DNA of 31,124 nt from an uncultured Chloroflexia bacterium (GCA_963726245.1 CAVSBT010000012.1:1-31124); one strand, 5' to 3'; shown: positions 27,928 through 31,124, counted from the first letter of the stretch. Notes: generated by a model not told the origin, from the letters alone. Program-made: numbers and translations.

Positions 27928-29561
<1,634 letters not shown>

Positions 29562-29573
29562 CGGCCATGCACC

Positions 29574-29606
29574 GGGGGCCCGCGAGAGCGGGCCCCCTAC
29601 CTTTCC
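29574..29606 (+). terminator. Terminator after groEL
   Basis: GGGGGCCCGC-GAGA-GCGGGCCCCC followed by TACCTTTC. Confidence 0.75.
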
Positions 29607-29641
29607 TCTCAGCGCCGCAAACCCGGCATGGTTTTCCACTC

Positions 29642-29704
29642 GTAGGGACAGAGCTTCAGCTCTGTCCTTGTTGTGGGCGGACGGAGCTGAAGCTCCGTCC
29701 TTAC
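29642..29704. repeat. Inverted REP pair (REPIN-like)
   Basis: GTAGGGACAGAGCTTCAGCTCTGTCC (29642-29667) and an inverted near-copy GGACGGAGCTGAAGCTCCGTCCTTAC (29679-29704). Confidence 0.82.
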
Positions 29705-29738
29705 GACATCCACCGCCTTCACGAGGCAGATCGCGTCG

Positions 29739-29767
29739 TTGACACCAATAGGCCCCCATGCTAGCAT
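29739..29767 (+). promoter_or_regulatory. Sigma70-type promoter upstream of the glgA leader
   Basis: TTGACA-17 nt-TAGCAT with a TG extension. Confidence 0.75.
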
Positions 29768-29773
29768 CACGCC

Positions 29774-29918
29774 CGACGGGTAGCCCGCCGGGCTACCTGT
29801 TTCACGCAAGAACGGTCCTGTCGCCTGGGGTTGGGTCGGCGGTTCGGTACGGCGGCAAGCCGGAGGGGTGACCCTGGACGGACCGTAGGCGAAGAGCCTC
29901 TGGTCTGTCTTTTTGTTG
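29774..29918 (+). ncRNA. Candidate cis-regulatory leader RNA (attenuator or riboswitch-like) before glgA
   Basis: 5' hairpin at 29776-29800. Helix ACGGUCC(U)GUC (29812-29822) with GAC-GGACCGU (29877-29886) competes with an intrinsic terminator (29877-29909 plus UUUUU). Confidence 0.6.
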
Positions 29919-29942
29919 CCGCTTCGGACCACCACCGGGGAG

Positions 29943-31124
29943 ATGTCGTTGGCAAGGGCCCTGCCCGTCCTGATCGCCGCCGTCGAGATGAGCCCCCTGG
30001 CCAAGGTGGGCGGTCTGGCCGACGTCATCGGCGCCCTCCCCCGCGCCCTGCGACGCGTCGGCGTCGATGCGCGCGTCGCCCTGCCCCTGCACCACGTCAT
30101 CGACCGCGAAGCACTCCGCCTGCGGCCCGTGGCCGCCGTCCCGGTGCCCACGCCGATGGGCCGACCACCGCCCGCCTGTTCGAGACCACGCTGCGCGACG
30201 TGCCCTCTACTTAGTAGAGAACGAGGCGTTCTTCGGCCGGTCGCGCGTCTACGGAGAGGAGGACGACCTGGAGCGCTGGCTCTTCTTCTGCGACGCCCTC
30301 CTGGCCGCGGCGCCCCATCTCCGCTGCAGCCCGGCTCAGCCCGGGCCTGGCAGCCCCATGTCCTCCACCTGAACGAGTGGCACAGCGCCTTCACGGTCAC
30401 CCGCCTGCTGGCGGCGCCGTCACATCCCTGGGCCTCCTGCGCCCGCGTCTACACCATCCACAACCTAGCCCTCCAGGGCCCCTTCGACCAGCACTTCAGC
30501 CGCCGCCAGGGACTCCCCATCGCCGCCCTGATGGCGCCGCCCGACCAGGAGCCGGACATCGCCTTCAGCGGCATGGCGCAGGGCATCTTGTGGTCCGAGA
30601 TGGTGAGCACGGTCAGCCCCACCTACGCCCGCGAGATCCAGACGCCGGAGTTCGGCGCCGGCCTGGACGGCCTGCTGCGCAGCCGCGGCGACCGGCTGAC
30701 CGCGGTGCTCAACGGCATCGACTATGAGGTCTTCGACCCGGCTCGCGACCCTCACATTCCCGCCAGCTTCAACGCAGACACGCTCGACCGGCGGGCGGAG
30801 AACAAGAGGGCGCTCCAGGAGCGGGCAGGCCTGCCGGTTGAGCCGCGCGTGCCCGTGGCCGGCATGGTCACCCGCCTCTACGACCAGAAGGGCAGCGACC
30901 TGGTGGCGCTGGCTTTCCAGCGCCTTCTCGTCGAGCACGACCTGCAGCTCGTCGTGCTGGGCACGGGCGATCCCTCGCACGAGCGCATGCTCGCCGACCT
31001 GCAGCGCGCCTTCCCTCAGCGCATGGCCCTCGTGCTAGGCTTCGACGAGGCACTGGCGCAGCTCATCTACGCCGGCTGCGACTTCTTTCTGATGCCGTCT
31101 CGCTTCGAGCCCTGCGGCCTGGGC
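29943..31124 (+). CDS. glgA: Glycogen synthase (GT5), compensating indels at ~30160-30330, truncated at the right edge
   Basis: EMSPLAKVGGLADV (KxGGL), HLNEWH, TIHNLALQG, TVSPTYAREI, LNGIDY, TRLYDQKG, MPSRFEPCGL. Confidence 0.93.
   Translation, partial: MSLARALPVLIAAVEMSPLAKVGGLADVIGALPRALRRVGVDARVALPLHHVIDREALRLRPVAAVPVPTPMGRPPPACSRPRCATCPLLSRERGVLRPVARLRRGGRPGALALLLRRPPGRGAPSPLQPGSARAWQPHVLHLNEWHSAFTVTRLLAAPSHPWASCARVYTIHNLALQGPFDQHFSRRQGLPIAALMAPPDQEPDIAFSGMAQGILWSEMVSTVSPTYAREIQTPEFGAGLDGLLRSRGDRLTAVLNGIDYEVFDPARDPHIPASFNADTLDRRAENKRALQERAGLPVEPRVPVAGMVTRLYDQKGSDLVALAFQRLLVEHDLQLVVLGTGDPSHERMLADLQRAFPQRMALVLGFDEALAQLIYAGCDFFLMPSRFEPCGLG

Follow-up and report, generated by a model that had tools for sequence, protein, structure and literature searches.

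We found a lineage-restricted leader in front of glgA, the gene for glycogen synthase, in uncultured Dehalococcoidia. With moderate confidence, we read it as a cis-acting leader built around an intrinsic-terminator attenuator, with a second hairpin after it that occludes the Shine-Dalgarno sequence; any control of the leader would more probably come from a factor acting in trans than from an aptamer. The stretch of DNA that we analysed (the window; 31,124 nucleotides) is the entire contig C12 of a metagenome-assembled genome of an uncultured Dehalococcoidia (G000; 2.68 Mb, 83% complete, 6.3% contamination). A unit of promoter, leader, and hairpin is present in all five distinct sequences that we found: the window, two reference genomes from two genera (G001, from the same genus as the window, and G007, from another genus of the same family), and two metagenome contigs (L070 and L071). 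Comparisons among five sequences from two genera have low power.

In the window, glgA begins at a TTG codon and runs off the end of the contig (29949..31124, plus strand). It is 74% identical to the intact GlgA of G001 over residues 5–394 (tblastn). GlgA from G001 has the glycogen/starch synthase domains Glyco_transf_5 (E = 7.5e-58) and Glycos_transf_1, and a ROK-family gene lies 3' of it. Upstream of the leader in the window is groEL (Cpn60_TCP1, E = 1.3e-55), which is split into two overlapping frames (27952–29352 and 29238–29561). The frame of glgA is also disturbed, at about 30160–30360. Because G000 contains a second, uninterrupted piece of glgA on another contig (C10:2-1402; aligned over 1111 nt at 94.6% identity with 3 gap openings), and because of the contamination of the bin, these disturbances are better explained by indel errors, or by two strains mixed in the bin, than by pseudogenes. 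A search of sequencing runs listed roughly 20 metagenome runs that share words with the leader, and no RNA run. The leader itself is covered by near-identical contigs in all four of the soil or sediment metagenome runs that we examined (for instance, 322 nt with 3 differences). Therefore, the leader sequence in the window is not an assembly artefact.

The leader starts with a sigma-70-type promoter (29739..29767, plus strand), which consists of TTGACA, a 17-nt spacer, and a TG-extended TAGCAT. This promoter had been proposed in an earlier note on this DNA, and both a motif scan and its conservation bear it out. Across 29300–30300, it is the single sigma-70-like site (10/12 matches), while shuffled sequences give 0.1 expected sites; the entire window has 9 such sites versus about 2.2 expected. 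The -35 and -10 elements are kept in all five sequences, and 19–20 of the promoter's 29 bases are identical between the window and G007. Similarity among the five sequences begins exactly at the -35 hexamer and runs into glgA. The DNA further upstream is unrelated: groEL precedes the unit in the window and at 0/4 of the other loci (tblastn).

As for where translation begins, the earlier note had taken an ATG at 29943 as the start of glgA. That codon is missing in the relatives and abuts the Shine-Dalgarno sequence (GGGGAG, 29937..29942, plus strand), which is 6 nt 5' of the TTG. The conserved start is this TTG at 29949, which is replaced by GTG in G007. By eye, all five sequences have a GGAG or GGGA motif 6–9 nt before the TTG or GTG.

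Between the promoter and this ribosome-binding site lies a GC-rich hairpin with a U-run directly after it, which is the layout of an intrinsic terminator or attenuator (29876..29918, plus strand; found by folding and by RNAalifold). The hairpin (29876–29910) has 10 base pairs, a 1x1 internal loop, 4 more base pairs, and a 5-nt loop, and it is followed by UUUUUGUUG; the U-rich tail occupies 29910–29918. Its folding energy is -20.9 kcal/mol in the window and ranges from -17.5 to -22.3 kcal/mol across the five sequences. As a structure, then, the terminator that the earlier note described before glgA is confirmed. (A simple terminator scan missed this hairpin because of its internal loop.) The U-run is present in 5/5 sequences, with a weaker tract in G007 (UUUUCUCUU). 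The hairpin and U-run lie 34 nt before the TTG in the window, and this distance is fixed at 34–38 nt from the start codon among the five sequences. From this layout we infer that transcription can terminate here.

The terminator is also the best conserved part of the leader. In the alignment of five sequences, 98.6% of its positions are paired, 10 of its 14 pairs are invariant, and 3 vary on one side only. Compared to G007, 29 of 35 bases (83%) are identical, which is similar to the glgA coding sequence (81%). For a distant variant from the metagenomes, 15 substitutions and 3 indels are listed (29789–29869); among the differences listed, none are in the arms of the terminator and two are in its loop.

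Downstream of the terminator, a second hairpin (CUUCGG/CCGGGG, 29922..29940, plus strand) covers the Shine-Dalgarno sequence in the five-sequence consensus, with weak statistical support. By eye, its arms vary among the sequences (UCCCGG/CCGGGG, UCCC/GGGA, or CUCCG/CGGAG). The Shine-Dalgarno sequence and the start codon are 23–35 nt beyond the terminator hairpin, and our scan of 29300–30300 did not find any promoter-like site between the terminator and the start of glgA in the window. We considered a second promoter 3' of the terminator (TTGCCG-N17-GAACAT, by eye), but it is present only in G001 and L070 and is absent from the window, L071, and G007, so we disregarded it. Since the ribosome-binding site and start codon of glgA come after the hairpin, and since no other promoter was seen, expression of glgA would depend on read-through of the hairpin. 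Together with the presence of the unit beside glgA in 5/5 sequences, this supports the proposal that a terminator-bearing leader gates glgA.

We found the leader in few genomes, and only in those with this type of glgA. When it was used as a BLAST query against 61 related genomes, the only match was in G001 (82% identity over 185 nt), and G000 had no second copy. When we examined the regions upstream of 28 glgA loci, only those from G001 and G007 had the long leader. The exact terminator pattern occurs in two records among 185,579 species genomes, namely G001 and G007, and in two metagenome contigs, namely L070 and L071. We also searched 401 genomes of the class, a sample that lacked G001 and G007, while allowing up to 3 mismatches to the terminator pattern. 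Beyond the window's own genome, 8 genomes had a hit, all with 3 mismatches, and the reversed control gave 9 hits, so these are at the level of chance. Within the family, a covariance model of the leader (R1) hit 3 of 18 genomes (E = 1e-28 to 1e-41), and the next best hit had E = 0.036. These three genomes have one copy each, and they are the only members of the family with this type of glgA (0/15 of the other genomes have the leader). Close homologs of this glgA are found in 3 of 93 genomes of the order.

This distribution bears on whether the leader might be a small RNA gene, or a 5' UTR from which a small RNA is released. Its main product would then be a stable RNA of about 140 nt that acts in trans, and glgA would be transcribed by leakage only. 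The unit has its own strong promoter and terminator, and as in many small RNAs, the 3' hairpin and U-tail are its best-conserved part. Premature termination within a 5' UTR would similarly release a discrete RNA of about 140 nt from upstream of the gene. Unlike such small RNAs, however, the element is strictly tied to glgA: it is found in all three family genomes that have this glgA and in none of the 15 that do not. Furthermore, it lies at a fixed 34–38 nt from the start codon, a separate promoter for glgA was not seen, and no conserved single-stranded seed stands out. We therefore consider a small RNA unlikely. A sister family from the same order, f4, does have a single-copy gene resembling a small RNA that adjoins glgA in 5 genomes, which is a point in favor of this view, but that gene is unrelated to the leader.

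The f4 element deserves a brief description. It is about 80–110 nt long (L042:3065-3175, minus strand, with matching places in L102–L113). Its features include a TGTAAC-like -10 box, the hairpin GUCGAAGG-AGGCGGGG-CCUUCGAC, and a terminator, and inspection by eye shows that its AAACGGG can pair with either an upstream CCCGUUU or the terminator's CCCGUUUU. It had no match in Rfam. The element is single-copy in 13 of the 14 f4 genomes that we searched (G057 has two copies), and it is absent from 47 other relatives. All 14 of the f4 genomes contain glgA, and the element adjoins this gene in five of them (G030, G039, G045, G048, and G054); elsewhere it is found before other genes. These three counts include the unpublished genome G045. 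The element looks like an undescribed small RNA gene. We rejected homology to the glgA leader of the window, as the f4 element is single-copy, lies beside different genes, and has no sequence similarity to the leader.

In f4 and in another sister family, f5, glgA has a short leader or none, and lacks the terminator. Because of this, an attenuator does not appear to be a general need for glgA. We inspected the f4 and f5 loci by eye (L041–L065). In f4, glgA has a conserved TTGCCG-N17/18-TACACAT motif about 35 nt before the start codon. In f5, most glgA genes follow groEL, as in the window, and have a TGnTATCAT-like -10 box only 4–17 nt before the start codon. This short distance suggests that the glgA mRNAs of f5 are leaderless or nearly so.

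Another view is that the large hairpin does not terminate transcription at all. Instead, the leader would serve as an extended, structured UTR, either keeping the mRNA stable or tuning translation via the Shine-Dalgarno hairpin, and the large hairpin might be a co-opted relative of a repeat. A hairpin does cover the Shine-Dalgarno sequence and the start codon in 5/5 sequences. Also, by eye, the outer stem of the terminator (GGACGGA...UCYGUC) looks like a palindromic repeat that is dispersed in these genomes (GGAC(A/G)GAGCU..AGCUC(U/C)GUCC as RNA), so part of the hairpin's conservation could reflect its origin in a repeat rather than its function. On the other hand, we found just one copy of the hairpin in the genome, and the leader is single-copy, as would not be expected of a dispersed (REP-like) repeat. 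The U-run follows the hairpin in all five sequences as well, and the same hairpin-plus-U design ends a T-box leader elsewhere in the window. A structured UTR with a non-terminating hairpin is thus rather improbable.

The repeat itself is present next to the leader. Two perfect 22-nt palindromes (GGAC(A/G)GAGCT NN AGCTC(T/C)GTCC; 29646–29667 and 29679–29700) lie between groEL and the promoter of glgA. We counted 40 places with the pattern in G000 (versus 0 for the reversed control), 10 in G001, 3 in G007, 6 in G043, and none in G002 or G030. It reaches a depth of up to 1433 in metagenome contigs. This palindrome is a REP-like dispersed repeat.

The T-box leader (Rfam RF00230, 93.2 bits by covariance model) is complete; it is at 1439–1731 on the minus strand, and the whole unit extends from 1429 to 1779. 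It has its own TG-extended promoter (TTGACA-17-TATAGT, 1779–1751, minus strand). Its terminator (1454–1429, minus strand) has 11 base pairs, an energy of -22.9 kcal/mol, and the tail UUUUGAUUUG (TTTTGATTTG in our scan). Leaders of the Gram-positive terminator-antiterminator type, such as this one, are among the closest known systems. The leader of glgA is similarly built: it has a TG-extended sigma-70 promoter, then a lengthy structured RNA, and, just upstream of the regulated gene, a GC-rich hairpin with a U-run. The energies of the two hairpins are similar (-20.9 versus -22.9 kcal/mol). This similarity implies that expression platforms made of a hairpin and a U-run are in use in this organism. 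Unlike the T-box leader, the glgA leader does not match the T-box or any other Rfam family, and we did not find a conserved antiterminator or sensing domain in it.

We now turn to the leader upstream of the terminator. The RNAalifold consensus begins with a 5'-proximal stem-loop (29771..29807, plus strand), with an inner helix (29778–29786 with 29790–29798) and an outer helix (29771–29776 with 29802–29807). The outermost pairs of this stem-loop may lie upstream of the transcription start. These two helices are 91–92% paired, and 5 of their pairs have changed on both sides, mostly owing to G007. A third helix (29815–29829 with 29836–29848, plus strand) is 89% paired and has 2 pairs that changed on both sides. 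Its pairs are kept despite the differences listed at 29817, 29836, 29847, and 29848 in the distant metagenome variant. Two small hairpins in a G-rich stretch (29851–29861 and 29865–29875, plus strand) precede the terminator, and these are poorly conserved. They are partly broken in G007 and also by differences at 29853, 29854, 29861, and 29867 in the metagenome variant.

Overall, the consensus structure that includes the terminator is 92% paired across the five sequences. In this structure, 8 pairs have changed on both sides, as compared to 3.3 for shuffles and 0–2 for slid controls. Because the structure was derived from the same five-sequence alignment, and because nearly all of the covariation comes from G007, we view this as modest support for the structure. 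The folding energy of the whole leader is mildly below that of shuffled sequences (z = -1.95, -1.18, and -2.57). Identity between the window and G007 is 41–50% in the 5' domain and 54–62% in the middle region, so both are less conserved than the terminator. We also checked for a leader peptide by eye. A 6-codon frame with a GTG start ends within the terminator arm in the window, but it is absent from G001, and an indel at alignment column 105 breaks the longer frames, so we rejected it.

The earlier note proposed that this upstream region may be a riboswitch or a protein-bound attenuator. Specifically, a strand at 29812..29822 on the plus strand (ACGGUCCUGUC) can form a helix with the terminator's 5' arm (29877–29886). 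If a ligand stabilised a domain that is closed by this helix, the terminator could not form and glgA would be turned on. The pairing is present in the window, and in the four g1-type sequences RNAalifold recovers the helix as a consensus structure once the terminator's 3' arm is deleted. In those four sequences, the antiterminator state lies above the terminator state by 9.4, 2.7, 3.4, and 7.8 kcal/mol, a gap that ligand binding could bridge. Also, the leader is not explained by any known Rfam family.

The comparative evidence for the alternative pairing is less favorable. The helix is 86% paired across the five sequences, and none of its pairs show compensatory changes. Its seventh pair (C29818-G29880) is found only in the window: position 29818 is G in the other four sequences and in contigs from 4/4 of the metagenome runs. 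In G007, only 6 of the 9–10 pairs are still possible, and the antiterminator state costs 13.0 kcal/mol, so the pairing is kept within the genus and is lost in the sister genus; the earlier note had named such a loss in relatives as grounds for refutation. When we shuffled the upstream leader 500 times while preserving dinucleotides, 17, 12, 9, 5, and 55% of the shuffles (the last for G007) could pair with the 5' arm as well or better, so the pairing does not exceed what chance would give. Helix 3 competes with the antiterminator for one and the same 5' strand.

The putative aptamer does not look conserved either. The inner stem UUCGG/CCGGA that the earlier note placed within it is specific to the window (the remaining four sequences have CCAG there), and the breaks in the small hairpins are described above. 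Known riboswitches are most conserved in the aptamer. Here the gradient runs the other way: the terminator is 83% identical between the genera while the would-be aptamer is just 54–62% identical, so the pattern is the reverse of a conserved aptamer with a drifting expression platform. The restriction to one locus per genome in two genera is another point against a riboswitch. All of the comparative tests that we ran went against it, and with five sequences these tests have little power. We consider a metabolite riboswitch with this closing helix to be very unlikely.

The adenine riboswitch of the pbuE type is a useful comparison, as it is an ON switch in which the P1 helix overlaps the terminator. 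Likewise, in the window, the terminator's 5' arm shares bases with the 3' strand of the possible closing helix. Unlike in the pbuE type, neither the closing helix nor the stems within it are conserved, and conservation is lowest in the region that it encloses.

The claim that the leader does not match any known RNA family was borne out by searches with Rfam covariance models. At the gathering thresholds, the T-box leader was the only match in the whole window, with none over the leader of glgA. In a permissive search of 29500–30100 (E up to 10), all 12 matches were far below the gathering thresholds; those over the leader scored 17.6 bits (versus a threshold of 81) and 13.3 bits (versus 40). 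We also did not find any Rfam matches in 9 related loci. In a full-text search of the literature, the result listings and the opening lines of the abstracts mentioned neither a riboswitch nor an attenuator for glgA.

If read-through is regulated, what might regulate it? We searched the genomes with the leader (G000, G001, and G007; 83–91% complete) for RNA-binding antiterminator proteins. The CAT RNA-binding domain (PF03123), which is found in proteins of the BglG/LicT type that bind RAT sequences, was absent from all three, while the control was positive in 4 of 14 known genomes. The ANTAR domain (PF03861) was also absent from all three, but the control was silent too (0/14 genomes), so that search is uninformative.

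CsrA is another candidate. The Escherichia coli glgCAP leader is controlled by CsrA, which acts on translation, and it does not have a terminator. As in E. coli, this lineage has a glycogen gene behind a structured leader, and all three of the genomes with the leader, G000, G001, and G007, encode CsrA (in G000, at C38:47916-48062 and C17:179972-180127). In 5/5 sequences, the invariant 5' arm of the terminator contains two GGA motifs, and a further one occurs at the Shine-Dalgarno sequence. In contrast to the E. coli leader, the glgA leader has a terminator, and its GGA motifs are in stems, not loops. The presence of CsrA does not discriminate, as 60 of 61 relatives encode it and most of these lack this leader. 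Control of the glgA leader by CsrA is compatible with these features, which are not evidence for it.

Our preferred explanation, the terminator-based attenuator, would work as follows in this narrow lineage of uncultured Dehalococcoidia, where the leader forms the 5' end of a glgA transcript (a glgA-ROK kinase pair in G001). Transcription would begin some 7 nt 3' of the TG-extended -10 box. The nascent RNA would fold into the 5' stem-loop and helix 3, and then the polymerase would meet the strong hairpin and U-run 34 nt before the start codon. Glycogen synthase would be produced only when the polymerase reads through, which would make the hairpin a transcription attenuator that sets or gates expression of the enzyme. 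The second hairpin, by burying the Shine-Dalgarno sequence, may add translational damping. We infer read-through, and any regulation of it, from this anatomy. Conservation centres on the hairpin itself and not on the region upstream of it. If read-through is regulated, this makes a ligand-binding aptamer a less likely cause than the general termination factors, or than a factor acting in trans that would recognise or melt the hairpin.

The leader could instead be a lineage-specific ON switch of a new class. A metabolite of the glycogen pathway or a nucleotide signal might bind at the G-rich 29812–29875, or a specific RNA-binding protein might bind the invariant 5' arm (GGACGGACCG), and either would block the terminator. 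This is highly doubtful. If it were true, it would couple the expression of glycogen synthase to carbon status in Dehalococcoidia. A riboswitch for a sugar phosphate or ADP-glucose would matter far more than an attenuator, but the comparative evidence argues against it.

The value of the attenuator is limited by its distribution, with one copy per genome in just two genera. To our knowledge, nothing is known about the control of carbon storage in the uncultured Dehalococcoidia, and a conserved attenuator before glgA is a concrete and testable handle on it. The leader also suggests that terminator-based leaders other than the T-box operate in this class.
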